The notes below the pieces were generated by a model that searched no databases, was not told where the DNA came from, and was given only the letters and a program-made list of their open reading frames with translations. From assembly GCA_004431415.1 (NCBI GenBank), contig QPMI01000437.1, positions 310,001 to 374,000 of the forward strand: a stretch of DNA of 64,000 nucleotides, given 5' to 3'. Within the stretch, counting starts at the first letter, position 1. Each line of letters starts with the position of its first letter. The translations under genes were made by a program, and so were the position numbers. This DNA is from Cyanophora paradoxa CCMP329. Taxonomy: Eukaryota; Plantae; Glaucophyta. Positions 29,201-64,000 of the stretch are shown piece after piece.

Positions 29201-32025
29201 ACAGCTGGAGCTGAAAATGCGATCAGAGACAGCATTGAAGTTTCGATTAAGCTTAAGAATTGTTTCGGTAGCGCTTACCGTTCGTTGATTGCCAAATGCC
29301 CATCCGGACAGGGGGTACATTCGCTCGAGCCCGGCTGCTCAACGTTGAAATTGTCACGTGCACGTGGATTCGAAGCGAAACGGGTACCCAAATTAAAGAC
29401 CCGCACCTTGCTGACGAATCCTTCCGCACAGGTAACACACGTGCCGTTCCTCTCGCGCGTCCCCGCCCTGCAGATCGCGCAGCCGACGCGGTCCTTCGTT
29501 GACTCCGTTCCGCTTGGGCTGACGCTTCGCGTGAGCGCGAGAAACAGCCCTATATATAGCTAGGGGCGCCGCAAGCTCTGAAATTCAAAGATTTCAAAGA
29601 CGCGCACCATATGTCGCACTCTGCTCTTCCCGGCGCACTGGCAAAGCTGCCGAACAGGCACTGCGCAAGTGTGCGGATTTACTTTTGCAAGACGCCAACG
29701 CGATGAAACTCGAGAATCGAATCTCAGTTGTTTAAAGCGTCAATGGCGAGTGCTCACAAGTTGACATGTCGACATGTCATCGGAGCGAAAGGTGCCGGCG
29801 GCTGCGAATCGGATGTCAGCTTAAGCTTTCCAGCTCGGCGCGCGGGGGTCGGGACGGACGGCAAGCAGAGCAGCTTTGGCGGTCGGACGCGGCGACAAAT
29901 CCAGCGTGGCTGCAATGAACAACATGTAAGCGGTCATCTATAAGCAAACATGCGAACGCGGGCCGGGGGCACCAATCAAGGCACAGTGGGGTGCCGGCCT
30001 CGGGCGCGTACGTGTTGCCCACGCAGTCCCTGCACCGCCTCTCGTACTCGCCCATTCCTTTGGGACAGGCCCGGCACGAGGTGCGCTCCGGGTTTGGCGC
30101 GTGCCCAGGGTCGCACGCCGTGTAGTTCCGCGAGGCGGGGAGCGCCGCCGCTCCATCGGGCACCGGGGCGCACTCCGCCATCGATTCGTGTCGGTAGAAA
30201 CCGCCCAGACATGCTGCGAATCGATGTGTCCGGTGAGAAGAAATGTCCAAAATGCGAGATCGGCCGCGGAAATTCAAAGCGCGCGCACGGACGCAGGACT
30301 GGCCGTCGACCGCGGAGGTGTAGCCTTCCGGGCACTTCTGGCACTCCCAGCTCCCCGGCAAGCTCGCAACCGAGTTCAGGGGGCAGACTAGACACGCGTC
30401 TCCGGACTGGTACATCCCTGCGTCGCCGGCGCCGCTTTAAATTCTACTTTCGAACGAGTTCGCAACCGAAACTATTACCGCGACGGACCTGAGGGGCATG
30501 GCACGCAGAAGCTCCTGTCCGCGTTCGGGACAAATCCCGGGTCGCATTCCGTGAAGGTTGCGCTCCCCTCGCTGGCCGACGCGCGCGGCGGGACCGCCGT
30601 GCAGTGCGTCATAGATCCGTTGCGGAATGTGCCACTCGGGCACCTGCCGGCGATTGCGATTCAAGACATCATAACGATGCGAAACGCTTTATTCATGTCG
30701 CACCGCACGCAAGAAGCGCTGTCGAGAGCGGATACGGTCCCGTCCGCGCATGCAGAGCAGCCCGCGCTGGCCGACGCCGATGCGTGCGTGTTGAGCGGAC
30801 AGGCGACGCAGCGGTCTTCGAGCTGCATCAAACGAAAAGTATGCGCATGCGCATGCGCATGCAATGTTGAGAATTCGAAGGGTAGACAAAACAGATTATA
30901 GCTATAAATTCGTACCTGATACGAGCCCGTGGAGCAAGGCTGGCACTCGGACCGCAGCGCGTTCGGAATGTATCCCGGCAAGCACGGCGACCAGGTGGCG
31001 GCGGCGCCGGGCGAGACCGATCGGGGCGGAGCCAGCTGGCACGTGGCATTCTCGGCTGAGCGATACGAGCCTGTCGCGAGCGAGAGTAGTCATAAGCCAC
31101 CGGCGCCGATGAATTCGAAGCTTTACTTAAGTGTTCAACGATGCGCGGACCGACGCCACAAGGCAAACAGGTCTGCAGGTCGGACGAAGCGACGAATCCG
31201 AGGCCGCACGGGGTGCAGGCCGAGGAGGCCTCCTTAGGCGCCACGTGGTTGAGAGGACAGATCTCGCAGCTGTTGTTCCGCTTGTAGGAACCCTGGGCGA
31301 GTGTTGCGGTCACAAACAATGTTCTGTAGTTCAGCCTAGCTATAGCCGCCGCTGGCCATGGGCGCTTTGCACACCTTGCGGCAAGCGACGCATGCCCACC
31401 TCGGAAGATCAGGCACGAACCCCGCCGTGCAATTTGAGTAGGTGGCCGAACCCGGCTGGGCGACGCTGCGCGCAAAGCGCTCTCAGAACTGTGCGAATCC
31501 AATCCGATGATCGGAGCTTTGGGCGATCTTCGTATTCTTACCTGCCATCCGGGACAGAGATGCAGGTGGGATCTGAAGCGCTCCTGTACGTTCCACCCTG
31601 CTCCCCCCCGTCAGTGTACGAAGCAGAAACTCTAAGCAAACGGTGACGACTGAGACTCACTGGGCAGGGCAAGCAGGATTGTCTGGGAAGGGCGATCGAG
31701 AGTCAGACGATTACAATGCAAATTGATTCAAAGGGTCGCTGTATCCGCGACATCTTGATATTGCAGCACTAAATTTCAATAGCATTGATACAGCAAATTG
31801 CGAACCGATCGGCTGCCGAGACGTGCCCATCGGGGCAGCGTGTGCAAGATGTCTGCCCGGGCATCGCAGCAACGCTGTTGAGCGGGCACAGCAGGCAGTC
31901 CATGTTCGCCTGCAGCTGGTAGGCGCCCTGTGCATGTACAGGTGCGCCCCTCCGAATTAAGTTTGGGCATGACGCCAGCGAGGCGCGCGCTTGCACGTGC
32001 ACGCACCTTAGGGCACTGGTTGCAA
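26245..32025 (-). CDS. 3' part of a large host Cys-rich (GCC2_GCC3 / ephrin-receptor-like repeat) membrane protein gene interrupted by the virus
   Basis: Many exons with CxxCPxG/N repeats (CLVCPLNSVASLPGSWECQKCPEGYTSAVDGQSC; CLLCPLNSVAAMPGQTSCTRCPDG), followed by TM helices YALAALVVGVGALLVLVGAAVFFY and VVGSVFALLGLALAAVAVGYVV. The 3' end is uncertain and may extend to ~23000. Confidence 0.8.
32020..32025. repeat. Left target-site duplication TTGCAA
   Basis: Identical hexamer at 60585-60590. Keeping one copy restores the host reading frame. Confidence 0.9.
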
Positions 32026-32308
32026 ACACATAGTAAAATGCGGAGTTTTAACCCTCGGCTTATCTTAATTGATTTTGTTGATATATCTCGTATATTCTAT
32101 TTCAATCAATCGATAATCTGTGTATATCTTATCGAATATTCAATTATTTCGATTATTTTGTATTCTTTTCGATATTTTATCGTAAATTTCTCTTATTTTC
32201 CGATTAGTCTTACTGAGTCAATCGATAATCTGTATATATTTCCGAATAATATAACTGAATCTCAATTAGATCTTGCCTCTGGTTAAAACTCCGCATTTTA
32301 CTATGTGT
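32026..32308. other. Terminal fold-back hairpin (28-bp perfect stem, 227-nt T-rich partly paired loop)
   Basis: 32026-32053 ACACATAGTAAAATGCGGAGTTTTAACC is the exact reverse complement of 32281-32308. Confidence 0.9.
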
Positions 32309-33072
32309 GATTGGTCTAAAAGGTAATTGATTTAATCGATATTATATTCATGTACTTTCTCGATTAAATTTAATTAAATTTAATTCATTTAATCGGAAAT
32401 ATATCGCTAAACTCGATTAAGATCCATAAATGATTCATTTGTTTATATTAATAAATCGATCTCTTATTGAATTCAATCGTAATTATACATGAAACTTATA
32501 TGATTTTATCATTGTTTTGTTGAGTCTAAGGGGGGACCCTTAGAAAATTGGGTGTCACAGGTGTCACAGGTGTCACAGGTCAATCCCAAGGAAAGTCCTA
32601 GTGAGAAATTGATTTTTAAAATCCACGGGATAGACCTGTGACACCTGTGACACATACCATATTCAGTAAGGACCTCATATATTGTGAAAATCTCAGTGTT
32701 AGTTGGTGTTAAATCTTTCAGGCAGCATTTATTTGTCAGGCATTAAATCTATCGATTTTCATAAAGTATTTTATTTTGGCTAAGTCATTGTTTGGATTAA
32801 CAATGAAATTTCAATTTTATAAAAGTTTTCTAAAAAGGTGCCTGACAATGCCTGACATACTATATAAGTGCCTGACAACTATATTATAGTGCCTGACAAA
32901 CCATATATGGTAATACTATATGATATCTTCTACTTTCTCAGTGTTAGTTGGTGTAGTTGACTCAAAAAATGCATTTATACTCTGATTCATTGTTATTTCC
33001 TGTGAAATTTGAGTCAACTCAACCCACTTAGTCAACCCTTGCATTGAATTCGTAACAAAATCCATATACTAT
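32026..33072 (+). repeat. Left terminal inverted repeat (1,047 bp; imperfect extension to ~33157)
   Basis: Reverse complement of 59538-60584. I noticed only two mismatches (near 32867-32869). Begins 5'-ACACATAGTAAAATGCGGAG. Confidence 0.95.
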
Positions 33073-33430
33073 TACTACTTTTACGATTAATATGAGTCAA
33101 CCTTGAGTCCACTTTAATATAAATATTATATAATAGGGGGAATCAAGGGGAGATGCTTATAAACATATGAATTATTGAGCCTATGATACTTACATCGTCA
33201 GGCAGGCCTCGTTAAGAGGATTCCGAATCTGTTTTTGGTTTTGTCACATGATGAGTTGGTGAAGAGATACATGCATTTTAGTGTTTTGTATGTGGTTTAA
33301 TGATATGATGTCATAATGCATGGGTTTTCGTCAACAGTTAAATGAACAGTTAAGTGGACACCGTTTCACGATAAACGAGTAGACACTGCCTACTCCCAAC
33401 AGGTGTCCACTTAACTGTTCACTTAATTGT
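32525..33430. promoter_or_regulatory. Cluster of iteron-like inverted/direct repeat modules (putative origin or protein-binding region)
   Basis: Hairpin TCTAAGGG-GGGA-CCCTTAGA; GGTGTCACA x3 / TGTGACAC x2; TCAGGCA x2 / TGCCTGACA x4; AGTTGACTCAAA / TTTGAGTCAACT; 20-bp IR TGAACAGTTAAGTGGACACC. The repeats are seen directly; the function is inferred. Confidence 0.55.
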
Positions 33431-33910
33431 TCGCAATTTGCTTCATTGTCTTTCAATAGCTTTCCCGCATATCTTGTTTTCAATTGTTGTTGCAGTACAC
33501 TATTACAATAGTTGTCTCGTTAACTGTTCACTTATCTGTTCGCTGCGGAAAAAAGACGATGACGGACGTGTTATGTTACGAAATGATGTCATAATGACGA
33601 TGCATATGTATATGATATATATGACACACCATCGAACTCGGGAGATCATGACGATCACGGCGATATATATATGTTATGTGTTTATGATACATCATTATTA
33701 CATCATTATGATGCATCATTCCGAAATCTCGAAAAATCGATAATCGGCATCTTCAAACGCTTGTATCTCATCACCAGATTATCAAATCGCAACGTTCTGC
33801 ATATCGCTGTGAAGCGCTTGAAAAGATCTACAAGACAATGTGTATATCATATGCATATATGTATATCAGTCATACATATATTTGGAAAAAACGAGTTTTC
33901 GGCTAGCAAA

Positions 33911-35295
33911 CTAGCTAGTTTTGGTCCTCTCTCTTAGTGTTCTTTGAGGTTTAGGGGCTGTATATGACTCCTTAGTAGTCTGAAAGTCATTATACCATCT
34001 CTGGCTATTCACTTCTGAAAGTTTCTGTGTTCCTGCTATAGTGAGCTTTTTGAGTTCCCTGTTAACTTTCCCAGCCTTCTCCTTCCTAGCCTCTATCAAA
34101 GGCTTAACTGGGACTTCATTAGCAGCTTCTATGCCTTCTCTCCTTATAGCAGCATCAACCCTAGCTTCCTCTTTAGCTTGCTCTAAGGCATCCACTGTAG
34201 GGGCTTCCAGATACTCAACTGCATTCACAGGCAACAGCTCATGGAATGCAAACCTGTTATCTATGATCTCTCCAGTGGGACTCTTTAGCTTAAACTTAAA
34301 GCCTTCTCTACTATCAACAGTGTAAACCATCCTAGACCAATTGTTACCCTGTTTAGCAAAGGGGTTCTTCTCAACTTTCACTCTAACAAACATGCCAGGC
34401 TGCATGGTATCAAGGTAAGCTATTGATTTCTTGAATCTTTCATCTTCTAATCCCACTATATACCTATAATGATCCTCTGTAGTTTCACCTGGCTTCATCT
34501 TAGTAGCTGAGTGGACTGTATTATTGTAATTATACTCAATATCACCTAACACATCAAAGAATCTAGCTGTGTTATTAGCTATGCAGTAGTTTGTGATCAG
34601 TCTCTTAATCTGCTTGTTAAAGGCTTCAATTCGACCTTGGCTTCTGTGGTCAGCAGTTCCACTCACTTGGTGTTCTATGAATTTACTAGATAAATACTCC
34701 TGGAATATTCGATTTTGGAACTCACTTCCAGCATCTGATTGAACCTTTACTATTGGTCTTGCCACTCTCATCTCAAGCTGTTTAAATGCAGCCAATGTAG
34801 TGAGAGCTGATTTATCTCTTATAGGTATAATATACCCAGTTCTCAGTGTTGATTCCATTGCAGTCATAAATGTATCATAGCCATTGTTTTGTTTCTTATA
34901 AGCTGGGAAAAAGAGCAAATCAATCACATAGGTATCAAGGGGTTGCCTAATTGGGACCATGGGATCTCTCTTCCTAGATATAGCAGGTGCATTGATCTGA
35001 ACAACTTCTTGTTTTTATAGAACTCTTGCAACTGCTTATAGGATTCATCTGGTAACTCAGCCCTCATAGCTTGAAGCCCTTTATAACCAGTTCTCACATC
35101 ATAGAATCTCTTGGCAATCTTGTTGGTTTCTTTCACTGCAATAGCAACTGGGATCTCTACTGGGACAAGCTCTTTCATTTCAGACTTTTTGACAATTCGA
35201 GATTCCCCCTTTTCCTCCTTTGGAACTGTGATAGGCAGTAGGTTACCTTGTAGTTGCTCAGTGGTTCTCCTAACTATTCTTCCAGTTGCTGGCAT
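33911..35295 (-). CDS. Retroviral-type (rve, DDE) integrase; one -1 frameshift at ~35014
   Basis: Catalytic triad YVIDL / QSDAGSEF / GRIEAFNK, YNNTVHSATKMKP, and a Polinton-type C-terminal PGMFVRV…F.K…WS segment. ORF 34924-35295 joins 33911-34960 if one A is added to TATAAAAAC. Confidence 0.92.
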
Positions 35296-35298
35296 CTC

Positions 35299-38200
35299 TT
35301 AATTAAAAGGAACAGAATTAATACCATCTGGTAAGATGTATCTCTTTGCATCAAAGCAGTTTAGGGCAACCCTTCTACTCACAGTGTCTATTATTGTGTG
35401 ATCTGCCCTTCTTTTCTGCTTTGCAGTCACAGTCTTGCTGATACCTGCAAATAAACACTGTTTAAAATCATTAAATTGGAGTTCCTCAGTTGAAGTCCCA
35501 GAGAGCTTACTCCTCTCAATCTCAGCTGTTCTGAAACTGTAAACTTTGGCTCTCAGACCCACATACTCCAGTATAGCAGAACCTGGCATCTCATTTTTGT
35601 ATTTACCTGGGGTCATTCTTGAATCACCTCCAAGGTCCAAGGCATAAGATATATTCTCTATATCTTTTTGTAAGGTCTTAGATTCGATATATAGACAGAA
35701 GGAATCAGTATCATGGAATAGTAACTTTGCTTTTGTCCATTGGGACCTTACAGTATCATAGAAGAACTGGTAATTATGCAGTTTGGCTGCATCCAAAACA
35801 TAAGCCCCAATTGCAACAGGCTTATCTAGTTTCACATGCTTTGTGTAAAACTCAAAGGCAACTGCTTTTTCGTTTATGGGCTTGTTGATTTCACCAATGG
35901 AGAGGCTGCATATTTCATAAATAGTTTCTCACTGTTTGCAATCTTAACCACAGATCTACCTCTACATGATTCAATGCATTTCCCATAGATTGAATTATTC
36001 ATGAGCTTATAGAAATCAGCCTCAAATTTATTCACTGCTTTCCTTCTCATATCAGTGTTCAGCTCAATGTAGGGTTTCATTACAGGAGCCACAGTAAATG
36101 ATAGGACCCTGTGAACCTTCTTTAGTTTCATCCCTTTGTCCAACAGATACTGTAGAAGAGGCTCAGAAATCACATAGTTGGTCACAGAACCAAAGGTTGC
36201 AGTTAGCTTAGGGGTCTTATCAAGCTCTTCTCCTGAGAGATCTAATAGGCTCTTTTGATATTGTGATAATTCGGCATATTCTACTATTTTCTTGTTAATA
36301 ATTAGGGGGAAATCACTGTGGTCTAGATATAGCCTAATTGGGTAATCCAGATCAACTTCCAGGAAACTGGATCTGTTATCTTGTGGGTTGAATTCGGTCT
36401 CCCATCTAAAATCACCAACTGGAATTGGCTGACTCAAACAGTAGCCATACAAGTTGTTAGCATCAAACAGCATTATATGGGAGTTCTCACCATCAGCCTC
36501 AGCATACCTACAAGGCATTGTTGCAAAGCCACCCCTGATTCCCCTCTCAACAAATTCGTATTGCTCTACATCACTTATAAGCTCTATTTTTGCCTTGGTG
36601 GTCCTAAGCATAGCATCCCAAGATAACCCAGGTGCAGATACATAATGAACTGGGTCCAATCCATATACTGAGTGTGAAAGCCTTCTGAAAGCCTGGAATT
36701 TGCTCATTAACTCATCTACATCAGCAGCCCCAAAGTCCATAAAATTACTTGCATCAATGAACTTGTAAAGACCCCATTGCAATGAAAGGTATTGATCAAA
36801 GTTTTTCGAAAGGATTTCGATTCGCTTTTTATCACCCATGCCTGCTATTTTTCTGAAAATGAATGTCCCACAGTCATCCATTTGGTCAACAACCACTGCT
36901 ACTTTTGTTTGCTTTGAGATTCTCCTATGAAGATTGCAGTTTCTGCATGCAGGAGCAATGTAATTACCTGTGTGGTGATCATGATCCCTGCATTTGAAGT
37001 TTTCCTTGGTGAACCTCTCACTGCAAAGGTAACAGTGTTTGGTAGCTCTGTAAATTGCTTTCTGCTCATCTGTGAGTTCATTCATGGGAATATTGGTAAA
37101 CAGGAAGTCAATTAGCTCTCTTGCTTTGGATTCCAAGCATTCAAACAGACCTCCCATTGGATCCTGACCCTCAAATCGAAAATCTTGAACATCTTCCCCA
37201 GTGACTATTCTTATGTTGACTGCTGAGACTTCCCTCTTGGATTTCGATGCATCTATGGGGATGCTTCTATGTTCAATCTTGCAGTAAACCACAACAGGAA
37301 GCCAAACAGTTTTCCTTAGGTTTTTCAGTCCAAACTCTATGGTGGTCTCAGGTTTTGGTGTGATTCCCTTTGAGAGTCTCCAATCAATGCATCTATTTGA
37401 ATCCACATGAGCAGTTAGTTTAGCCTCAGACCTGAATCGAGATAAGCATGTATCACAGTAGTGTAACTTTTGATCCTTGGTTTTATCAAGGGCAACTCTG
37501 AGAAGTCTTGAAAGGGACATGATTGTAATATAGTGACCATTCCCTTCATCATCATGAATGAGCATGAGATTAATCTTTTGCTTTCTGCCTGGGTTGCTGG
37601 ATTGATGTAGGGGATATATAACATCTCGATCCATTCCAAATATGTTTATGCTGATGCCTGCATTTTGAGATTCGAATTTATCAATGATTTCAGCATCACA
37701 GGGAACAGGGAATGGGATGTTATCGAAATTGAGAGCCAGAGGATTGTATGTAGTTGGTGAGTATTTCCATTTGCGATATTGTGTTAGCTCACTTCTCTTG
37801 TGGAATTCACATCTTTCCTATGGATCCATGCCAAAACTGCATTTTCGAAGCAAGAATCATCAATATTTCGAATATTCACTGTGGCTCTCTTGGCTGCAAT
37901 TGAATCAGGTGTTTTAACATAGCAACCACCAGTTGGGGCATAACTCATAATAGCAACTCTGAGCATTTCGATTCTCTCCAATCGATAGCTATCAACAACA
38001 TTCATCTGCTCCTGACACATTTGGGCTGCTTTATTCAGCTCAGTTCGAATATTTCTCGATTTGGTTAATACAAAATAATCGCTGTAAATGTATTTCGATA
38101 TCCAAACCTGTGGATTGCTGACTTTTACGAACTTGCAGATAAACGATAAGCGAACTTTGATTGCCCTGAATTGATCTAGACTGTCTCTTAAACGTTTTGG

Positions 38201-38542
38201 TAGAGAGGTTGCAATTCTATCTAAATATTCAATCACATCAACAACAACTTCCCTTCTGGCTCTGTAAGTGAGCCAGCGATATAATTCATTCATTGCTGTA
38301 CCATCTTCTGCCTCTGGTTCTATTTGCCTCAGGCGATCGAGTTCATCAAGAGTTTCAACTTTATCATAGAGGTTATTGGCTTTTCTGGTTAATTTCGCTA
38401 AAGTGGGTCTGCCCCTTGAAATAAATCCGATTTCCCGGTCATATTCAGCCTCTGTAATTTCATGGGCTGCATACAGTGTTCCCAGTAATCCCATGAGTTC
38501 CCATTTCTTCTCTCTAATGAGTCTGTTGCTAATTCGGGGCAT
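35299..38542 (-). CDS. polB: Protein-primed family B DNA polymerase (Polinton-type), split by two -1 frameshifts (~37800, ~35882)
   Basis: Motif A LFDANNLYG, motif B KLMNNSIYGK, motif C HDTDS, GLRAKVY, YGLDPVHYVSAPGLSWDAML, an EndoVII-like Zn insert CYLC…DHDHHTG…ACRNCN, and N-terminal NIRNIDDSCF. The three ORFs are collinear. Confidence 0.92.
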
Positions 38543-38576
38543 AGTTCCTAACTTGTTCCTACTCTCAACAAATATT

Positions 38577-38894
38577 TTATTCTGAGATGTTCTGAACGCG
38601 ATTTTCTAGTTTCTTTCGCAATTTGGCTTTGTAATGCATTGGATTATGTGATCCATTTTTTGTCCATACATTTGGGTTTTTGTGATACTGTTTAAGGGCG
38701 TTAATTAAGTTTTTCTCTGTTTGTAATCGCAAACAATCAATATCTTTGGAGGAAAGCTGTGACATTTGATACCCATCACATTTGCTTTGGCATTTGATGA
38801 TTTTGTCTATAAGAGCTGGTATATCCTTCAAATCATCTTTATCGAAATGTTTGTTCTCAATCATTGAACTCATTCTGGTAGTCCAGCTTGTCAT
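38577..38894 (-). CDS. Viral hypothetical protein (105 aa)
   Basis: ATG-started ORF packed in tandem upstream of pPolB. No recognisable motif. Confidence 0.55.
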   Translation of the reverse strand: MTSWTTRMSSMIENKHFDKDDLKDIPALIDKIIKCQSKCDGYQMSQLSSKDIDCLRLQTEKNLINALKQYHKNPNVWTKNGSHNPMHYKAKLRKKLENRVQNISE

Positions 38895-38947
38895 TGTTGG
38901 TACTACTACTTATTATTATAAGAATATTATAATGTATTTGTTTTAAA

Positions 38948-39092
38948 TCGTCAGGCAGACTTCGATTGTCAGGCAGCTGATTCAGCCAACATTAAGAAAC
39001 TCTGTCACTTTTTCAAGTCAGTGTTTGAGAAAACTAATGAAACCATAAACTTATAAAAGTTAAATAGAAAGGTGCCTGACAGTGCCTGACAG
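38948..39092 (+). repeat. Degenerate internal copy of the TIR TGCCTGACA module (left-TIR orientation)
   Basis: GTCAGGCAG x2 … ~100 bp AT-rich … AAAGGTGCCTGACAGTGCCTGACA, matching 32717-32857. Confidence 0.8.
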
Positions 39093-39096
39093 CTTT

Positions 39097-41490
39097 TTAA
39101 CAATCATCATCATCCTCATCAATAAACTCTGTTGTATTTTCCGAAATCAGTTTTACACACTTGTAACCTCTATCATATACTTTTGAAGTTGCCTTTCTCA
39201 CTGCATATTTGTCATATTTGGCTCCCAACATCTCCATTACTCTCTTAACCCTGCTTGCAGACATATTGAGTTTCAAAGCTTTTAACTCCTCATCTACAGT
39301 TTTGCTTGACAGAGAATCAGAAGGATTTCCTGTAAATTCAAATCTGCTTTTTAGTATTTGAATTTCATCACCTGCATCCTCTCTGAAAGCAGCAGTATCA
39401 TTTGCCACCTTGCCACATATCTGGACTTTGTGGGATTTGTATGCTTGGAATACTGACCATTGGAAAGCATGAATGATTTCAGGGCGTTTAAGCAGATCAC
39501 TTTTAATATCTTCAGAAGCCAATCTATAGCATGGGAGCTTCATTTCATCCATTGTTTTCTGATCCACAAACTTGTGGGGATGCTGAAAGAAAACAAGAGT
39601 CTCAAGTGTATCAGATGGAGAAACAGGGGGCATATCATTCATGATCATCCAGAGCCTACTTTGGAGTCTTATATTTTGCTCATTTCCATATAGGATTCGA
39701 ATGCATTGAATATCACCACCAGATTCTTTCTTTTTAATCATATTGCCATTTATCTTGATACTTGGATTCGAAACATCAAACTTCATCTCTTGGGTAAATG
39801 TTAAACGGCGAAATTCACATGGTTTCATCCATTTTAGCTTTTTAGCCTCATCAGAATCTGAATGTTTGTCCATCAGGAAAGATTCTCCTCCAATAGTGTT
39901 TACATAACCACTCCCCCAAGTGTTCTCATTAAGATTGACATAAACTCCTTTTCCACAATTGCGCTCACCTGATGATAGTCCCCATTGTTTATCCTCTACT
40001 TTGCCTGCCATTGCTCTTGCTGTAAATTCGAGAGCAGTATTAATTGCATCTGCTCCAAACACAGGTTCAAGTATGTTTTCGTAGAGGATTTTTATATGCT
40101 CTTCTGACGGCTTGACTACATATCCTTGATCATCTACAAGTAAATCTCTTTCAATTCGAGTAGTGGAATATACGTTTTGACACTCTGCCCAAGGAGTAAG
40201 CTTTTTGGTTTCGAAATCATACACACCATTTTTATAACACAATTTTCCAAGAGATGAAGACCATAGGACATTATTCACAAACTCACTATCATTTGGCAGA
40301 AGAGCTTTTGTGGCTTTGATAACTTTTTGAGCGCCTGTTATATTTGCGGTATACTCTGTTAGACCTGTTAGACCCTCATGATATATCTTTGCTTGGAGGC
40401 ATTTTTTTAGGAACACATTTTCCACTTGATTGGCTTCCTCAGTCCAAAGGTTCTCATCTGTTTTGACAAATATACGACCATTGGATTGCTTGACATCATT
40501 TTTGATATCTTCAGCAAACAGAGTAGCAGCCTCATAGTCTGTAGAGCAAATTCGAAAATCGTTTGCTTTCAGAGAAGCTTCATCTGGAAGCTCGAAACCC
40601 TGATCCATAGGCTTAACAACTAAGCCTAATTTGTATCCTGTGGACTGCTGGATATAGTTCTCTGCATCTTTGAGAATATCAGTAAGTTTTTCCAGTGATA
40701 GATTAGGTGACTTTTCAATCATGCAGCCATCAAATACAAGAACACCAACAGTGAGTTTGATGGAGGTTAGATACTCACACAGAGCCATAAGAGCAATATT
40801 CTCAATCTGACAAAGAACCATGTTAACAGTAGAACCTAACACATTGTAGCCCTTCTTTCGCTTGCAAATAGCAAGGAAGTTGGTATTTTCTTTTAATTCA
40901 GCAATAGAAGCATGAATACCACCAATTTCTTGTTTAACCTTTTTAAAAGCCATTTCTTTGTGTAAATCGGGACACTCAATGCCTCCTCCTCCGTTAATCA
41001 CAGATAAGAAGGCGCACTTAATTTCTTCACGAGTAAGATCACACTTTTTGCTTAAATCACTAACGATTTTATCTCGATTGGCAACAAACTCAGCAAGGAA
41101 ATCACAGTTTATGTCATTTTTTTGGCAATACTGGACGAGTATCGATGGATGAGCATTTTTCATATCAATATCATAATACAAATCCCTTGCTAAGGTGTGT
41201 CTAAATTCCCGAGGCATACTCTGCATGCTTGCTTTTTTGTTTTTGATGTGTGAGAGAGTAGTGAAATATCTTCCAGTATGGTGTTTGCATTGATAGTATT
41301 TAACTTGAATGGTCCCATTTGAATGCAAGTCCTTCATATATTTCTTGAGGAGAGTCAAAGTAGCAGTAGAATCCACATCTGGTCTATAACTCAAACCCTC
41401 GAAATTATCGATTAAATACTTAAGAGTAGGGCGAGATACTTTTTCAATAAGAGTGATATCGAGATTGTTGGGTTTCTTTGAGCTAAACAT
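39097..41490 (-). CDS. TVpol-type (PolA-like) primase-polymerase fused to an SF3 (D5-like) helicase, 797 aa
   Basis: N-terminal GRYF…SMQSMPREFR, YYDIDMKNAHP, KCAFLSVINGG, LVFDGCMI. C-terminal NGVYDF, Walker A GERNCGKG, Walker B LTFTQE, sensor-1 WMIMND. Confidence 0.85.
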   Translation of the reverse strand: MFSSKKPNNLDITLIEKVSRPTLKYLIDNFEGLSYRPDVDSTATLTLLKKYMKDLHSNGTIQVKYYQCKHHTGRYFTTLSHIKNKKASMQSMPREFRHTLARDLYYDIDMKNAHPSILVQYCQKNDINCDFLAEFVANRDKIVSDLSKKCDLTREEIKCAFLSVINGGGGIECPDLHKEMAFKKVKQEIGGIHASIAELKENTNFLAICKRKKGYNVLGSTVNMVLCQIENIALMALCEYLTSIKLTVGVLVFDGCMIEKSPNLSLEKLTDILKDAENYIQQSTGYKLGLVVKPMDQGFELPDEASLKANDFRICSTDYEAATLFAEDIKNDVKQSNGRIFVKTDENLWTEEANQVENVFLKKCLQAKIYHEGLTGLTEYTANITGAQKVIKATKALLPNDSEFVNNVLWSSSLGKLCYKNGVYDFETKKLTPWAECQNVYSTTRIERDLLVDDQGYVVKPSEEHIKILYENILEPVFGADAINTALEFTARAMAGKVEDKQWGLSSGERNCGKGVYVNLNENTWGSGYVNTIGGESFLMDKHSDSDEAKKLKWMKPCEFRRLTFTQEMKFDVSNPSIKINGNMIKKKESGGDIQCIRILYGNEQNIRLQSRLWMIMNDMPPVSPSDTLETLVFFQHPHKFVDQKTMDEMKLPCYRLASEDIKSDLLKRPEIIHAFQWSVFQAYKSHKVQICGKVANDTAAFREDAGDEIQILKSRFEFTGNPSDSLSSKTVDEELKALKLNMSASRVKRVMEMLGAKYDKYAVRKATSKVYDRGYKCVKLISENTTEFIDEDDDDC

Positions 41491-41664
41491 TTTTCTTGAA
41501 CGTTTCTATATTAAGCAGATAAAATATTTTATCTGAAAATCCTTGTCATTTTTTGTTGCCAAACCTTTAAGTCCTTTTGGGTTGGCTTCGAATTATATCG
41601 ATTATTGGTAGTAGTGTATCAGTTTTTTTATGAATTCCCCATACAAAAATAATGAACCGGCATT

Positions 41665-41895
41665 TCAGTATTTCCGAGGACGACCTACAGGTCGACCTTC
41701 TGGGAAATTTGGGTCAATTGTGAGTTGCTTTTTATAGTAGTAATAGGCTAATGCCCTTTTGCGGCGAATTTCACGATATTCCTCATCCTCTTCATATCTT
41801 TTATTATAATAAATTTGGTTTGAGATCTTTTTCTTCATTGCAGAAGAGATCTTTTCAAAACTTTTGCTATCAGTTACAGTTTGATCAGTATCCAT
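41665..41895 (-). CDS. Small basic putative DNA-binding protein with an AT-hook
   Basis: KRYEEDEEYRE…ALAYYY.KK…GRPVGRPRKY. Paralogue of 42660-42905. Confidence 0.65.
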   Translation of the reverse strand: MDTDQTVTDSKSFEKISSAMKKKISNQIYYNKRYEEDEEYREIRRKRALAYYYYKKQLTIDPNFPEGRPVGRPRKY

Positions 41896-42019
41896 TTGGG
41901 TATCTCTTAACTATAACCGAGAAAAATGTTTTGTCAGATTTCAATATGCTTGATTTCCTTAAGTAGTTTATGATTCGTCATTTTTTGGTAACAGAGATAA
42001 TTCCTATACTGTTACCATA

Positions 42020-42212
42020 AATGGTTTGTCAGGCACTTTCAAATAGTTGTCAGGCACTAATATAGTATGTCAGGCATTGTCAGGCACCTTTTTAGAAAAC
42101 TTTTCTATAATGAAAATTTCATTGTTGATTCAAACAATGACATTGAGAATTGGAAACGTTTGTGAAAATCAATGTGTTTCCTGCCTGACAAACTTCTTGC
42201 TGCCTGACAACC
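42020..42212 (-). repeat. Internal copy of the TIR TGTCAGGCA module (right-TIR orientation)
   Basis: TGTCAGGCA x4 + CCTTTTTAGAAAACTTTT…CAAACAATGAC closely matches 59707-59826, followed by TGCCTGACA x2. Confidence 0.88.
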
Positions 42213-42282
42213 TTTCATCAACAAAAAATGATTGTGTAAACTGACTTAAAGATTTATCAGATATATTAATAAGAAAACAACA

Positions 42283-42582
42283 ATGGCTGCTCAAATTGCC
42301 AAAGGAATTCTTGCCGAAAAGATTGAAAAAGATACCCTCTGGAAAGATCATAAAGGATTAGTTGATGCTATTGTAGAGAGTAGTCTCCACTCAACAGGAA
42401 TAAATATTGGTCAGGCTGATAATAAGCGAAACAAGGAATTTCGACAGAAAGTAGAGAGAGATGTATTGGGCATGATAATAGACCCAAACTACCTCTCTTC
42501 AATTAACAAAAAAAATCATTCAAACACTGCCACAAGAAAACGACTCTTTAACAAATTAATGAGTCGTTCTACTTCATCTTAA
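42283..42582 (+). CDS. Viral hypothetical protein (99 aa)
   Basis: ATG in an A-rich context, followed by a hairpin at 42623-42639 between convergent genes. Confidence 0.6.
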   Translation: MAAQIAKGILAEKIEKDTLWKDHKGLVDAIVESSLHSTGINIGQADNKRNKEFRQKVERDVLGMIIDPNYLSSINKKNHSNTATRKRLFNKLMSRSTSS

Positions 42583-42659
42583 ACAATAAAGCCAATTCCT
42601 TTGTATATATTTTTATAGCTGCCTCAGTAGCATACTGAGACCGCTTTTTCTCAATTATC

Positions 42660-42905
42660 TTATAGACCTGGGGGTCCATTGCTACTTTCAGTTGGCAAAT
42701 AATATTTAATCGGTCTTCCTCTGGGTCTCTGCTCTTCTTTTTGGGCTTTTCTGCGATAATAGGATGCCAGGGCTTGCTGCTTTTTATACTCTCTATATGC
42801 TGGGTCCTCTCTATATCGTTTCTGCATTGCTAGAATGTGTCTTATAGAACCCTCAGTAACAGGTTCATCACTGGTAAACTCGATTAAACTAATAGTATCC
42901 TCCAT
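42660..42905 (-). CDS. Small basic putative DNA-binding protein with an AT-hook
   Basis: KRYREDPAYREYKKQQALASYYRRK…RPRGRPIKY. Paralogue of 41665-41895. Confidence 0.65.
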   Translation of the reverse strand: MEDTISLIEFTSDEPVTEGSIRHILAMQKRYREDPAYREYKKQQALASYYRRKAQKEEQRPRGRPIKYYLPTESSNGPPGL

Positions 42906-43161
42906 TTATATTCCCAGAGAAAACGTTTTCTGCTGGCAGAGAACTTCTCCTTGGATACTCCTGTTGCTCATCTGTATACTCTGTGGGGTCTGCTGGCATT
43001 GACTCCACAGAAACTGTAGACCTCCTTCTCTCTCTTGCTTCTGAGGCATTATCCTCATTATCTGACATCTCAAACTCCACTGTTGTCTCACAACATCCAC
43101 TGTGGCAATTGCTCACCACATGCAGACTGAACATCTCGAAGAACTTTCGTATTATGTCCAT
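42889..43161 (-). CDS. Viral hypothetical protein (90 aa, CHSGCC motif, acidic tail)
   Basis: ATG-started ORF in the tandem minus-strand gene block. Confidence 0.55.
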   Translation of the reverse strand: MDIIRKFFEMFSLHVVSNCHSGCCETTVEFEMSDNEDNASEARERRRSTVSVESMPADPTEYTDEQQEYPRRSSLPAENVFSGNINGGYY

Positions 43162-43183
43162 ATCTCTAATAAAACAGAGATAA

Positions 43184-43918
43184 TTAAAGCCAAACTCGTC
43201 TTTTATATACTGTTGGGGCTACTCCCTTTTCTACTTCAGCTTTGGTGGCACCAGGTTCAATAGTTCCCTTTTGGGTCTTTGTTTTCATTTCATCTACTGC
43301 CTGCTCATCGATTTGGGTCTCTTTCTTAGCAATAAACTGTTTATCTGGGACACCAGTAATACCCATTTTATAAACTTCCTTTCGAAGCATCTCCTTTAGC
43401 TTAGCTCTCTCTTTCTTCTCAGTAACATACTGCTCCAAGGCACTGGATTTGGCTTCCAAGTCTTTGAGTTTAGCAGTCATCTCATCCCATTGAGCCTTGG
43501 GAATTCGATGAATATTTTGAGTGGGAGCAGTCTTATATGTGACTTCACCAGCCATAGACTGGATTACCTTGTCTGATTCCTTACTAAGACCTTCACCTTT
43601 GCGAGCCAATGACAGATCTTGCAAGCCTAAACCTTTATCATCAGCAGCACCAATAATTCGCCTGGCACCCTCAGCAACAGCTTTCATTTTCGAAGCTTCA
43701 GGTGAGATGTTGAGTTGGTCACTGGTTGAAGCTTGTGGGGCTTTGTCATCGACTGATTCCTCATAGGCAGCATTAAGAGGGTCCTCTTCTTGCTGTGAGG
43801 GCTTTACCTCATTCATACCATTGAACTTCAGTGGATCTGTGTTAATGGATCCATTGTTTCCACCACCTGAATAGCCAACAGCCCCAGCTGGAATCCCTAT
43901 CTTTCGTTTGGGAGGCAT
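43184..43918 (-). CDS. Viral hypothetical coiled-coil protein (244 aa) with N-terminal PPKRK
   Basis: Long ORF directly downstream of the ATPase, with a charged helical middle region. Confidence 0.7.
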   Translation of the reverse strand: MPPKRKIGIPAGAVGYSGGGNNGSINTDPLKFNGMNEVKPSQQEEDPLNAAYEESVDDKAPQASTSDQLNISPEASKMKAVAEGARRIIGAADDKGLGLQDLSLARKGEGLSKESDKVIQSMAGEVTYKTAPTQNIHRIPKAQWDEMTAKLKDLEAKSSALEQYVTEKKERAKLKEMLRKEVYKMGITGVPDKQFIAKKETQIDEQAVDEMKTKTQKGTIEPGATKAEVEKGVAPTVYKRRVWL

Positions 43919-43946
43919 TGTATCTTTATTAGAATGAGAGATAATT

Positions 43947-44729
43947 TTATAAACCGCGTTTATATCGCATCAATTTATTGCTATGGACTTGGCTTTTCAC
44001 TTCTTTGGGGGCTTCCTCTTTTTCTGGTGGTTTCAGTTCATCCTCTTTCTTTTTTGGCTTCCTGTGGAAGCGAGGAAATGGGAAATCTTTCACAAGCTCA
44101 GCTTTATCTACATAGTATTTAACTGAGTAGTTTGCAGAGGACCAAATGATATATTGATAGGAGTGAACATACTCTTCAAACATCTTGTAGAAATCCTCTT
44201 TATTTCGCATTATATTGTATTCTTCCTCTATGGCTTCAAGTTCTTTGCGATTAGCAGCACTGAGAAAAATAGCATAGTCAGAATTAACTCGAATAGTCGA
44301 CGAGACTTTCCTTAGCTTTTGTGTGATGCAGATAATGGATATTTTCGAATGGCGACCTCTGGAATACAGAGATCCGATTATTTTATCCCTTGTGAGATCG
44401 ACTATCTCATTATCGATTAAATCATCTAAAACAACACACATGTGGTTGACAGGTACACCCTTTTCGATTTTCTCCTGCCTTTCATCCAAAAGCTTTGAAA
44501 TGTAACCGGCATCCCATTTACCAAGTTCTACTGTTGCAACCTCTCTCCAGAAATGATTGAAGCTGGTTCCACTCACAACTAATACAACATCAATCTTTTT
44601 GGCATCATGCAGTTGCTTCAACCAATACTTTACAGCTTCTGATTTACCAGTGGCAGACTTGCCAATTGCTAATACACGAAATGGTGGTTCTATCATTTCA
44701 CCAGCCACAAATTCATCCAAATCATTCAT
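43947..44729 (-). CDS. A32-like (FtsK/HerA) genome-packaging ATPase
   Basis: Walker A GKSATGKS, Walker B VVLDDL, arginine-finger segment SRGRHSKISIICITQ…IRVNSDY. Confidence 0.93.
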   Translation of the reverse strand: MNDLDEFVAGEMIEPPFRVLAIGKSATGKSEAVKYWLKQLHDAKKIDVVLVVSGTSFNHFWREVATVELGKWDAGYISKLLDERQEKIEKGVPVNHMCVVLDDLIDNEIVDLTRDKIIGSLYSRGRHSKISIICITQKLRKVSSTIRVNSDYAIFLSAANRKELEAIEEEYNIMRNKEDFYKMFEEYVHSYQYIIWSSANYSVKYYVDKAELVKDFPFPRFHRKPKKKEDELKPPEKEEAPKEVKSQVHSNKLMRYKRGL

Positions 44730-44789
44730 TGTTGTATATCTTTCTAAATAAAGACAGATAAAAATAATGAAATGTTACTGCTTATGGTT

Positions 44790-45719
44790 TTACAGGTTAG
44801 ATAGGAATCGTTTAATACAACCCTCAATATCTGTTTCGGTATATGGGATTCTTAGGAGTTTGATGTTATTAGCCTCACAGTACCGATTTTTAATTCCATC
44901 ACGAACTTGGGTATCTTCAAATGCCTTCTGACCTCCAAACTGTTCCACAGGTTTGAAATGCTGAACACCATCATATTCGATAGCGATTTTGAGAGATGGA
45001 ATATAAATATCAAATGGGAGAACTCTTTTATGCTTGCAATCAGGAAATCTGTGGGATATTGAGAAGTCCAAACCAATTTCTTTAAGGGCTGCTTGCACTT
45101 TCGTCTCACCAATCGATGATCTACATGACAAACAGCCATAACCATTGAGAAAATCACTTGGCGTTTTTTCGAATTCCATCTCGCACCTTTTGCATATTAA
45201 CTTGACCTTGGTTTTTGAATTGAAATACTCAACCTTTGAGAAATCATAGATATCACCATAAAGTTTAATTGCTCTTTCTGTAAACTTTTCAATCCCCATT
45301 TGCAACTTGTTTTTAATGCGATCCATTTTACATTTTGCATGTCCATCTCCTTGCATGTGTTTGTGTGGTTTTTGAGTGAAATACTCTTGACATTTCTTGC
45401 AGAAAATTGTTATTGGGTCTTCTCCCTTAATGTAAACAGATTCTGAATATTCATAAAGATCTCCATGCTTTTCAACCGCTCTTTTAACGAACTGTTCAGT
45501 TGTTAGTCTATTCGACATTCCCTTTTTAATATTCCCACAAGCTGGGCAACCAGTCCCAGCAATGTGACTATATGCAGCTTGCAAAAAAATATTGTTGCAA
45601 GTCCTGCAAATAATTGCGACTTTCTTTGTGATGCCCCCAAAGTCGACATTTGAGTAATCAAACTTATCACCATGAACTTTGATGGCTTTTGCAAGAAATG
45701 ACTCACGAGAATAAGACAT
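44790..45719 (-). CDS. Free-standing endonuclease: three Zn-ribbon (DUF723-like) repeats + Vsr/PD-(D/E)xK-like domain
   Basis: Repeats of F..KA…HGD.FDYS…KV.IIC..C…GC..C. C-terminal S.GE…LPFDIYI…AIEYDGVQHF…RD..KN.YC..NNI.LLRIPY. Confidence 0.8.
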   Translation of the reverse strand: MSYSRESFLAKAIKVHGDKFDYSNVDFGGITKKVAIICRTCNNIFLQAAYSHIAGTGCPACGNIKKGMSNRLTTEQFVKRAVEKHGDLYEYSESVYIKGEDPITIFCKKCQEYFTQKPHKHMQGDGHAKCKMDRIKNKLQMGIEKFTERAIKLYGDIYDFSKVEYFNSKTKVKLICKRCEMEFEKTPSDFLNGYGCLSCRSSIGETKVQAALKEIGLDFSISHRFPDCKHKRVLPFDIYIPSLKIAIEYDGVQHFKPVEQFGGQKAFEDTQVRDGIKNRYCEANNIKLLRIPYTETDIEGCIKRFLSNL

Positions 45720-45792
45720 TTTACTTTATAAAGGTTTCCAAAAATAAATAATCATTTTTTCTTTAAATGCCTTACTGTTTATCGTAAGGTTA

Positions 45793-47160
45793 TCAAAGAT
45801 TTATACGTCTTAAACCATCGCGATCCAAAATTATGAACGAATGCATGAGAGCGCGAACATTAACATCGATTACCTTATCTGAAGGCATGTAGAGGGTGAG
45901 GAATGAAGAGGAGGAATTTGTTAAATCAACATAACCAGACTGGGCAATATTTCGAATCGCCTTTTCTCCATCAAGGCAGAAAGGCAATCCTGAAAGGACA
46001 TAGCGATCAGCAACCTTATCCATGTTAGAGCATTTGAAGGCATCAGCAATTAGCTCAGCACCTTTGAGTAGGGAAATTGGCTCAGTGGCAAAAAGTCGCT
46101 GTCCATTTATTTCAGTTGTGAATGTTATCTCTTTGGAGTTGGCATAGGTCTTAAGAACACTGTGGGAGCCTGTGGATTTATCAACAGTTGCATTATCACG
46201 AACTGAAACAAGCAGAGCATAAACCAGTCCAGAGATTTGAGAGAGGTTAATTCGATTGGGTTGGGCATTGCCCTTGGCAGGGAAAGCACTAGCATCAACA
46301 AACCCAATGTCTAGAGCAGGAATAGCCATGCCAGTAGTCTTTACTTTTTCAATAACAGTAGCGAAAAGCTCATCAGAAACATTAATAGCATGCATGTAAA
46401 GGCGAGGAGAGGTAATTGTAATACCAGGGGTTGTTGCACCAAGACTGAAAGTGGTGATGTTTTGACCAACATGGGCAAGGGTTCCATCTGTGAAGTTTCC
46501 AAGACCATCATCGGCAGTTGCATCAACTGTTCCAACAGCAGTTGTGAGTTCACGACCACCATAGGAAGTTTCAACATAACCCTTCTCAGCATCCTTAAAC
46601 CAAACAGTAACAACCATTTCACCAGATAAAGCACCAAGGGGAAGGTAGTGATTTAGCCAAGGCACAGGAATTTCAACGAAAAATGAGCCACCAAGGCGGT
46701 TGGTTCCATGAGCAGGAATGCCATGAACCATGCCCATTGATCGCTTCTTTTTAGCTAGTTGATCCTCCGAATAATAGACCAGGGGGAAATGAGCAAGGAA
46801 ATCAGATGGAATATGGTAGGTGTAAGATCCATAGGTAATTTCAAGTCGCTGAACTAAAGCACCAACTGGGCGAGTGTATCCATTGCGAACTAGGTCAGTA
46901 TCACCAGCAAAAGTGATGGCTGGAAGGTCGAAAGCAAGTTCGAGTTTTCCACAGAAATTGTAGCGAGGTAGCTTGAAGGAAATGCGATTTCCAACATTAT
47001 TCTCAAAAGTATTGCTGGGATTCACAACAACTAGAACTGGCTTAGACTTGGATTCGAGACCAAGCATAAGGGAGTTATCCAGGAAAAAGGCTTTCGCCTC
47101 CTCTGGGGTTGTTAGGGCTTCTTTCAGCGAAAGTCTTTGAAGAGTGGAAGTGATATCCAT
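45793..47160 (-). CDS. Major capsid protein, double jelly-roll (about 455 aa; ATG at 47160)
   Basis: Size and position next to the ATPase and pentons. ISFKLPR…LELAFDLPAI, LVQRLEITYG and VEIPVPW…YLPLGAL…VVTVWF resemble NCLDV/PLV MCP N-terminal motifs. Confidence 0.8.
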   Translation of the reverse strand: MDITSTLQRLSLKEALTTPEEAKAFFLDNSLMLGLESKSKPVLVVVNPSNTFENNVGNRISFKLPRYNFCGKLELAFDLPAITFAGDTDLVRNGYTRPVGALVQRLEITYGSYTYHIPSDFLAHFPLVYYSEDQLAKKKRSMGMVHGIPAHGTNRLGGSFFVEIPVPWLNHYLPLGALSGEMVVTVWFKDAEKGYVETSYGGRELTTAVGTVDATADDGLGNFTDGTLAHVGQNITTFSLGATTPGITITSPRLYMHAINVSDELFATVIEKVKTTGMAIPALDIGFVDASAFPAKGNAQPNRINLSQISGLVYALLVSVRDNATVDKSTGSHSVLKTYANSKEITFTTEINGQRLFATEPISLLKGAELIADAFKCSNMDKVADRYVLSGLPFCLDGEKAIRNIAQSGYVDLTNSSSSFLTLYMPSDKVIDVNVRALMHSFIILDRDGLRRINL

Positions 47161-47213
47161 TATATTCTCTTTTATTATACTGCAACATAAAAAATCTACC
47201 AATGATCCTTAAT

Positions 47214-48224
47214 TTATGCGAAGCTTGTAATAACTGGATAGGAAGGGTGAAGCTGCGACATTCTCATCTTAAAGTATTCATAAACTGGGTCTCCTGCTGG
47301 CTCATCACCATAGCGAATTTCAAAGGTCAGATGAACAGGTTGACCCTCAAAATCAATTGGTTCATTTACAGCATTAACAATATCAACCGAGAAAGTGGAT
47401 AATCCAACCTTTTTGTTATAGTATTTATAAAGTGGATGAGCTTCTGTTGAATTGTAAACAACATGCTCACCATAGTCTTTATCAGGGACCACTATTTTGT
47501 GAAAGTAACCAGTCAGAAGACCATCCCCACATTGCACCAGATCACCCAGCTCCTTTACTCTCACAAACAAAACACTGTCCCTGGTCTTCTCAGGCTCAAA
47601 AGAAGATATAATGCCATTCACGCGACCACCAGTAAAGATTCCATCAGTGAGAGCATCATAGACCTGTGATTGGATTGGGGAGTTACCATATCTTCCAGGA
47701 TCAAGACCCAGCAGTCTAGCTGAACTCAACAGCTTTTGGATTGTTTGTTGGCTTGGGTTCACAGCTACTGAGAAAGCCAAGTAAAATGGTACTGCTGAGT
47801 GGAATATAATTCGTTTCAGTGATTCATCCCATTTGCAGCGAATGGATGGTTGGGGATTTCTGCCTTCGAATTTAGAGTTAATTACATTCACAAGTTGCTG
47901 GTGGCTTTGGATGGGGGTGTTTCGACTTATAATGAATTGTTTCCATTGTTCATAGTCAGCAGCTGGGCGAACTGTTGGAATTCCTGAGCTTCCAGCTCCA
48001 GGAGTTTGTTCAGAATAATAAATGCTAAATGCATTGTCAACTGTCACATCTCCAACTTTGGTTTCACCACTCACCATAGGGATGCTGTTATAAAATTCGG
48101 CTGAGACCAGTCTCACAGCCCTCACATTCTCATAACTACTGGGGAGTCTAGCCACAAAGCTTGATGTGGGACCATCACCAGAGATTGTATTAAATGAGCT
48201 AACCTCGATGTAATCCACAGGCAT
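47214..48224 (-). CDS. Minor capsid (penton) protein 1
   Basis: IEVSS…F…LP…NV.AVRLVSAEFYNS N-terminus; LFVRVKEL…LSTFSVDIVN…IDFEG…LTFEI C-terminus. Immediately upstream of the MCP. Confidence 0.75.
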   Translation of the reverse strand: MPVDYIEVSSFNTISGDGPTSSFVARLPSSYENVRAVRLVSAEFYNSIPMVSGETKVGDVTVDNAFSIYYSEQTPGAGSSGIPTVRPAADYEQWKQFIISRNTPIQSHQQLVNVINSKFEGRNPQPSIRCKWDESLKRIIFHSAVPFYLAFSVAVNPSQQTIQKLLSSARLLGLDPGRYGNSPIQSQVYDALTDGIFTGGRVNGIISSFEPEKTRDSVLFVRVKELGDLVQCGDGLLTGYFHKIVVPDKDYGEHVVYNSTEAHPLYKYYNKKVGLSTFSVDIVNAVNEPIDFEGQPVHLTFEIRYGDEPAGDPVYEYFKMRMSQLHPSYPVITSFA

Positions 48225-48253
48225 TCTTCTTTTATCTATATTTATATATTAAA

Positions 48254-50731: not shown

Positions 50732-50774
50732 CTTTTACTTATCAGGAATTTTATAAATCCATATAGTAAAAGCC

Positions 50775-56500: not shown

Positions 56501-56503
56501 TAA

Positions 56504-56809
56504 ATGGCGACCTATCCTCTTGGTGGAACCACCTATTCTACTGAGCCTGTTGCGCTTTCTTTTGATACAATCACCCTTGTAAACGCATTACAAACAGTTG
56601 AAAAAACGATTCAGCAAACTAACAAGCTCTCACCAGTTGTCAATGAGTATAAAAACCTCTTGGTTAATGTCCTTGCTCAAGCTGCATATGGTGACCCTGT
56701 TGCTAAATACACTGAGTGTGATAACAACATTAAAGCAATGACATCCAACCTGCAAGTTCTTTCAACTGTTTACCAATCCCTTGGATCGAATTTAATCACT
56801 TTGGCTTGA
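56504..56809 (+). CDS. Viral hypothetical protein (101 aa)
   Basis: ATG 3 nt after the fibre stop codon. Predicted helical. Confidence 0.65.
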   Translation: MATYPLGGTTYSTEPVALSFDTITLVNALQTVEKTIQQTNKLSPVVNEYKNLLVNVLAQAAYGDPVAKYTECDNNIKAMTSNLQVLSTVYQSLGSNLITLA

Positions 56810-56848
56810 TTGCAGTTTATTTTTCTTTCCTTCTTAGTAAAAGAAGCA

Positions 56849-57724: not shown

Positions 57725-57725
57725 A

Positions 57726-58558: not shown

Positions 58559-58580
58559 GAATATTGGTTATATATAGAGT

Positions 58581-58853: not shown

Positions 58854-58882
58854 GATTAATTAATTTTTCTAAGGTATTCTTA

Positions 58883-60584: not shown

Positions 60585-60590
60585 TTGCAA
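60585..60590. repeat. Right target-site duplication TTGCAA
   Basis: Matches 32020-32025. Confidence 0.9.
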
Positions 60591-63983: not shown

Positions 63984-64000
63984 AACCGCCGGACCGCCGC

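Follow-up and report, generated by a model that had tools for sequence, protein, structure and literature searches.

The systems closest to the element considered here are the endogenous Polinton-like viruses (PLVs) of protists (PMC12220804). The two share their size, terminal inverted repeats (TIRs), a 6-bp target-site duplication, an rve integrase, a protein-primed DNA polymerase B (pPolB), an A32 ATPase, a double jelly-roll capsid, a fibre with an S74 chaperone and a GC content below that of the host. Our element occupies positions 32026-60584 of the window, i.e., of the whole 64,000-nucleotide stretch of Cyanophora paradoxa CCMP329 DNA that was analyzed (contig QPMI01000437.1, positions 310,001 to 374,000), and is a 28.6-kb PLV of 39% GC inside CpG-rich host DNA of 62% GC. 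In protist PLVs, Dam methylases have been proposed to act as a shield from giant-virus restriction, and CpG goes unmentioned in the main text of that study; proteins joining F5/8 and patatin domains are found there mainly in PLVs of Rhizaria and glaucophytes (PMC12220804).

Our literature search, with most subscription papers outside its scope, found no report of CpG depletion in PLVs or of palindrome avoidance in PLVs or virophages, and one further study (10.1101/2025.10.09.676808) makes no mention of methyl, restriction or CpG. An earlier reading of positions 33911-38542 (hereafter the original prediction) pointed to a CpG loss that spares TCGA. This loss is a real and unusual compositional feature, of unproven cause, in an element of a known kind. 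The original prediction overlooked a second layer, in the form of holes at palindromic motifs.

CpG loss and its flanking context

We sorted CpG sites by their flanks, with V standing for not T and B for not A, such that TCGB is a half-site of TCGA and VCGB has neither flank. The original prediction had described only three CpGs in the integrase region, all in TTCGA, and a pPolB region with nearly every CpG in TCG or CGA. Both descriptions hold: 33911-35300, where composition would predict about 57 CpGs, has three (34632, 34710 and 35198), each in TTCGA, and the 37 in 33911-38542 comprise 20 TCGA, 15 half-sites and two with neither flank, these two being the very exceptions it had named (ACGT at 38193 and CCGG at 38436). 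Assuming independent flanks, the probability of at least 20 of 37 falling in TCGA is 4e-12. The ratio of observed to expected CpG (o/e) is 0.20 in 33911-38542, 0.39 in the inner element (33073..59537) and, in keeping with the CpG-rich surroundings described earlier, 1.21 in the 62%-GC host flanks. The pattern extends beyond 33911-38542 to span the whole element, the inner part of which has 112 TCGA, 190 TCGB and 87 VCGB.

The codon-preserving shuffle that had been proposed as a check leaves the bias in place. Across 150 synonymous shuffles of the 25 open reading frames (ORFs) of the element, TCGA is the sole CpG class at expectation (97 vs. 96.1), with TCGB (156 vs. 264.9; o/e 0.59) and VCGB (71 vs. 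228.5; o/e 0.31) both depleted. Where a silent C/T site precedes G, 41 of 172 TCGA contexts retain C, compared with 35 of 548 for VCGB (p = 2e-9); the sparing is nevertheless partial, as the retained fraction of 0.24 compares with 0.40 in a control without the following G. These two tests refute the explanation that codon usage (Arg CGA, Ser TCG) and 39% GC produce the pattern as a side effect, which we regard as scarcely credible even though CGA leads among the CGN codons (69 of 129) and avoidance of TpA favors CGN after T.

A conditional-logit model of codon choice assigns CG a coefficient of -2.65, each TCG strand +1.17 and TCGA an extra term of just -0.04; thus, the 5' and 3' flanks act independently and by degree, without a special TCGA term. 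The second bases also have effects: WT before C adds +0.71+-0.18 and AW after G +0.85+-0.18, whereas A before C contributes -0.62+-0.23. As the two sides contribute symmetrically and the influence extends to the second base on each, the spared context is a graded W-T-CG-A-W and not a four-base site. An apparent strand asymmetry of the rule disappeared when the model took in two-fold sites and the -2 base.

The abundance of ATCGAT in the TIRs noted in the original prediction is likewise confirmed, with 5 copies in the 1047-nt TIR vs. 16 in the 26.5 kb inside, a density about 8 times that of the inner element; four of the five copies are spaced by 112-120 nt within a local repeat. The four AATCGAT motifs with this spacing, at 32109-32455, lie in a local repeat and hairpin-forming arms (32026-32072/32262-32308) and are possible protein-binding or origin elements. 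The density and regular spacing of ATCGAT in the TIR, together with the 2:1 preference of the host flanks for TCGA over ACGT, would suit an unbiased CpG loss with TCGA/ATCGAT retained under positive selection as a protein-binding motif, or a bias from the element's own polymerase or repair. We consider this improbable since the sparing is seen at silent coding sites in all frames, half-sites included, and since only one of 139 related loci, most of them with the same polymerase family or the A32 ATPase, shows it (TCGA at least 0.9 with VCGB at most 0.3). All 139 are at least 4 kb long, shorter ones (29 of the first 102, and L155) being excluded. The single locus is L076, a 4.2-kb, 24%-GC contig of pPolB/integrase type that displays the same trend, albeit in small numbers (10 TCGA vs. 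3 VCGB).

Missing palindromes in the element and its relatives

Forward selection among 3122 motifs returned CG, GTRC, CGAH (positive), GGCC and CTNNAG, and GRGCYC after two weaker motifs. Relative to the shuffles of the 25 ORFs, GDGCHC is entirely missing (0 vs. 21.9+-4.2, the lowest of the 150 shuffles having 12), whereas GAGCGC, a neighbor outside this motif, is kept (5 vs. 3.0). Similarly reduced are GGCC (1 vs. 27.4), GTAC (8 vs. 58.7), GCAC/GTGC (34 vs. 88.1) and CTNNAG (44 vs. 93.9). Palindromes so far under codon-controlled expectation are the mark of restriction-site avoidance. We take GGCC to be the site of HaeIII, GTAC that of RsaI/CviQI and GDGCHC that of Bsp1286I/SduI. The host flanks are without a motif hole and have 178 GDGCHC. 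In tests for replacement products of GGCC, GTAC, GDGCHC and CTNNAG, only GGTC stood out (+0.24, pseudo-p 0.04), which is unconvincing among about 40 tests. On the host side (1-32019, 60591-64000), many palindromic 4-mers are enriched (TATA, AGCT, TGCA, GTAC, TCGA), including motifs avoided by the virus.

With a fixed test for holes (o/e <=0.2 and Poisson p <1e-4 among 384 palindromes), such holes were recovered in 62 of the 64 loci of a group of small A32-ATPase viruses (57 clusters at 95%) and in 18 of the 73 pPolB relatives of at least 4 kb (two being the same sequence); none of 20 simulated sequences was positive. The restriction-like holes are the stronger and more general result compared to the CpG layer. 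Among the 64 loci, the commonest holes are GATC (38), GTAC (25), GGCC (22), CTAG (18), TCGA (18), CATG (17) and TGCA (16), and further ones in this group include AGCT, GTNNAC, TGNNCA and AAATTT, with CTNNAG at 0/21 in L176. Several palindromes are missing per locus in 62 of these 64 loci (L123-L183, L108, L110 and L117), and the sets differ even between close relatives. One 16-kb viral contig (L112) with AdoMetDC, a deoxynucleoside kinase and a fibre has ACGT 0/43, TCGA 0/58, GTAC 0/35 and CANTG 0/54.

The TCGA holes in 18 of 64 relatives imply that TCGA enzymes probably exist among such viruses. Together with the status of TCGA as the only CpG class at expectation, this might suggest that TCGA is shielded as a unit in our element, through adenine methylation (presumably by a TaqI-like methyltransferase) that blocks CG methylation or cutting. 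The intermediate half-sites, the negligible TCGA-specific term, the effect of the -2 and +2 bases and the lack of a Pfam match to such an enzyme among the element's ORFs make this highly improbable.

Methyltransferase content is uninformative about the holes: the 87 ORFs of at least 120 aa from 12 of the 18 hole-bearing loci gave a single match, in L018, and 13 hole-free loci gave none in the 82 ORFs covered out of 114 listed. The Sputnik MCP of L018 marks it as a virophage, with GATC 0/58, GGCC 0/13 and GTAC 1/18; L018 (333-1103 and 13596-15302) also encodes a D12-class adenine methyltransferase, yet GATC is missing. In another pPolB/rve element, L001:5283-6047 has a Tet/JBP-like oxygenase match (E 2e-7, below cut-off), possibly a base-modifying enzyme.

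The original prediction had also connected the CpG pattern to an anti-methylation role of the element's AdoMetDC. This finds no support: four relatives bearing the gene have CpG o/e of 0.71-0.80 and depleted TCGA, and holes are universal in the small A32-ATPase group with or without it. AdoMetDC is neither an explanation nor a consequence of the CpG pattern. The gene itself is genuine, its product being a predicted decarboxylase by family and DESH motif, and related genes also occur in other small A32-ATPase viruses. An association of AdoMetDC with holes, present at first in 8 of 11 loci, was rejected, as holes are found in 2/2 positive and 38/38 negative loci of at least 10 kb.

Candidate sources of the two layers

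Along the element, the CpG loss and the motif holes are decoupled. In the core, in 52801-56300 (part of the fibre gene) and in the left spacer, GGCC+GTAC+GCAC have an o/e of 0.20, 0.30 and 0.29, respectively, compared with 0.08, 0.68 and 0.71 for VCGB, i.e., the fibre segment keeps its CpGs and still lacks the restriction-like motifs. Moreover, CpG loss is deepest where the read depth of the element's family is high (rho -0.50 and -0.49), with no such trend for restriction-like motifs (rho -0.02 and 0.07), over 27 of 30 bins (three TIR/spacer bins excluded) that are not independent and in which depth does not equal copy number. A nuclease should leave no CpG-rich islands in place, and a CpG o/e below 0.44 occurs in none of the 64 free relatives; we therefore interpret the holes as the outcome of strong selection through cutting, and regard the CpG loss as slower and linked to residence in the host.

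C. paradoxa has DNMT1 and DNMT3, 32% CG methylation, methylated repeats and viral genes, and endogenous giant-virus regions; its non-CG methylation is at background and no N6/N4 methyltransferase matches were reported (PMC12344493). The former features are why we favor flank-biased host methylation for the CpG layer, and the latter indicate that the non-CG holes do not stem from its known methylome. Taken singly, the holes probably reflect restriction enzymes of a helper giant virus, and the chances are about even that the CpG loss reflects CG methylation with a flank bias, exerted by the host on integrated copies; for the two combined we likewise see an evenly balanced case. Under this scenario, the integrated element would be CpG-methylated by a host DNMT that is weak at CpGs with a 5' T or a 3' A, and the methylatable CpGs would be lost across many cycles through deamination and selection for copies that escape silencing. 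Upon reactivation, it would replicate alongside a giant virus with type II systems of restriction-modification (R-M) and, having no recognizable methyltransferase, might survive by offering no target sites. Of the causes first proposed, a context-selective CG methyltransferase with deamination stands in part: the flank-dependent CpG pressure is real by the codon test and a host enzyme is plausible, but deamination has no positive support. As for a defence that ignores TCGA, its helper-virus component is strengthened by the non-CpG motifs, but TCGA is not a unit.

Alternatively, the helper might account for the CpG layer too, if the element were acted on in the virus factory by a CG methyltransferase with a flank bias or by a degenerate enzyme that cuts or nicks at CG. 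Consistent with this, the remaining holes indicate helper enzymes, CG-centred palindromes (ACGT, CGCG, CCGG, GCGC) are holes in some relatives, integrated copies show neither product excess nor CpG transitions, and the preferences of mouse DNMT1 do not match the element. However, CpG loss changes about 8-fold along the element and the holes do not, the classes with the lowest values (ACGG 0.03 and ACGC 0.07 in the core) are not palindromes, and none of the 64 free relatives shows general CpG loss below 0.44; we deem this version a serious rival, albeit less likely than not.

Several observations, in addition to the interdependence of the depth bins, weigh against host methylation combined with helper restriction. 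The fitted models show no TG/CA excess: the CA/TG terms are +0.08, +0.11+-0.07, 0.00 and -0.21+-0.12, the last two against predictions of +0.32 and +0.25, with the baseline scatter over 52 relatives exceeding the predicted effect. Nor is CpG hypermutability seen among copies, in that 21 variant rows over 21 CpG sites, with contexts read by hand, include one CpG transition, and one of eight C>T/G>A changes is at CpG among 40 of 2215 variant rows listed, although contigs drop rare variants. The host flanks are not CpG-poor, and the Maverick-type L012 (CpG o/e 0.14, GGCC 0/15) is CpG-poor without sparing TCGA. For mouse DNMT1, TTCGAA, TTCGAT, ATCGAA and ATCGAT all fall into the bin above average and C at -2 is disfavored, whereas the element loses CNTCG more strongly (PMC7381644). 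On the restriction side, R-M has been proposed as an anti-virophage agent but found no support in the Acanthamoeba system (PMC7253447), and it was tested and rejected for the AGCT loss of pandoraviruses, showing that holes need not mean restriction (10.1101/712018).

The element and its place among known systems

By its major capsid protein (MCP), A32 ATPase, TIRs with target-site duplication, and pPolB and probable primase-helicase, the element is a PLV, its rve match being weak; its features are collected in Table 1.

Table 1. Features of the element, with positions in the window
Feature	Position	Strand	Remarks
Target-site duplication TTGCAA, 6 bp	left 32020..32025, right 60585-60590	n/a	
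Left TIR, 1047 nt	32026..33072	+	5 ATCGAT, 10 TCGA, 3 VCGB
Right TIR	59538..60584	-	
Motif holes, inner element	33073..59537		GDGCHC 0, GGCC 2, GTAC 10, GCAC/GTGC 41, CTNNAG 48
Non-coding spacer, CpG kept	33073..33910		34 CpG sites, VCGB o/e 0.71; one of two residual GGCC at 33205
rve-type integrase, 349 aa	33911..34960	-	Pfam rve E 1.6e-4, below curated cut-off; CpG o/e 0.05
pPolB	35299..38542	-	Pfam DNA_pol_B_2 E 7.5e-14
Probable D5-like primase-helicase, 797 aa	39097..41490	-	feature matches (0.99) to clusters in which 15-38% of members carry D5_N
A32-like packaging ATPase	43947..44729	-	Pfam Pox_A32 E 6.8e-11
Double jelly-roll MCP, 455 aa	45793..47160	-	structure model pLDDT 67.6
Patatin-like + F5/8 type C fusion	49176..50330	-	Pfam F5_F8_type_C E 3.9e-7, Patatin E 8.7e-4
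Fibre-like protein, 1699 aa, S74 chaperone at C-terminus	51401..56500	+	
AdoMetDC-family pyruvoyl decarboxylase, 132 aa	58883..59281	+	Pfam AdoMet_dc E 2.9e-11; DESH motif intact

In this copy, pPolB is split by frame-shifts into 37784-38542, 35874-37793 and 35305-35874 (tblastn against four intact relatives). The two TIRs differ by two mismatches, neither of which is a CpG transition. The MCP model matches the PBCV-1 capsid (Foldseek E 9e-19), with the Sputnik MCP only at rank 49, and one homolog was found (P0001 = tig00020904_g15213, 59% identity), its name following the contig pattern of C. paradoxa gene identifiers (10.1101/674762); profile comparison against other capsid candidates was negative. 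Pfam and PHROG gave no match for the primase-helicase candidate or for the minor capsid (penton) candidates at 47214-48224 and 48254-49186. Among the 25 ORFs, there was no Pfam match to Sputnik_MCP, a protease or a DNA methyltransferase, and the element is not a virophage of Lavidaviridae type. The MCP, ATPase and AdoMetDC as single-protein queries against viral contigs recovered no relative, and an identity look-up of 10 element proteins in the protein collection matched none.

The element belongs to a multi-copy, variable family: in the public host run X5, most genes have a read depth, which is not copy number, of 17,000-43,000 and the segment containing the helicase candidate one of 500-900, with 2215 variant places in 20 kb. 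TIR-like internal copies (80-90% alike) at 39036-39091 and 42002-42141 flank the low-depth helicase segment and may mark a swapped module. A related pair of ORFs with a DUF4379 treble-clef zinc finger (44790-45719 and 58581-58853), probably homing-endonuclease-like, has its longer member in a low-depth segment.

These results bear on whether most PLVs require a giant-virus helper and whether giant viruses turn restriction enzymes on such satellites. The sequence alone suffices to read the motif holes, which offer named, testable sites for matching satellites to helpers; the CpG layer, if host methylation is indeed its cause, predicts an unreported flank preference of a protist CG methyltransferase. 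It is a toss-up, in our estimate, whether PLVs and virophages are in general a negative print of their helpers' restriction arsenals, with giant viruses widely using R-M to defend themselves against satellites, and the palindromes that are missing predicting helper dependence and identity. For the present element, this would point to a glaucophyte giant virus with GGCC, GDGCHC and GTAC systems and a host DNMT that spares WTCGAW.

With regard to methylation, protist DNMT1/DNMT3 systems methylate viral insertions at CG, as proposed for the present element, and the main text on C. paradoxa has no analysis by CpG flank, TCG being unmentioned (PMC12344493). DNMT1 flank preferences can span about 100-fold, though the mouse ranking does not spare WTCGAW as our element does (PMC7381644). 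With regard to the holes, phage restriction-site avoidance likewise leaves short palindromes of type II form at counts near zero, with variation between related genomes. Chloroviruses and marseilleviruses have R-M systems (PMC7253447, PMC4081073), and GTAC enzymes and chlorovirus restriction enzymes are supported by the accessible text of PMC4081073, from which GDGCHC is absent; here, in contrast, it is a small eukaryotic virus that avoids the sites, presumably those of enzymes from a co-infecting giant virus. As in the AGCT loss of pandoraviruses, which shows no preferred replacement, palindromes have been purged from the genome of a eukaryotic virus; however, that case concerns a single motif in a giant virus and ours several motifs in a satellite-sized one (10.1101/712018). 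Finally, whereas some PLVs carry Dam methylases (PMC12220804), the present element has no such methylase, and the sites are missing instead.

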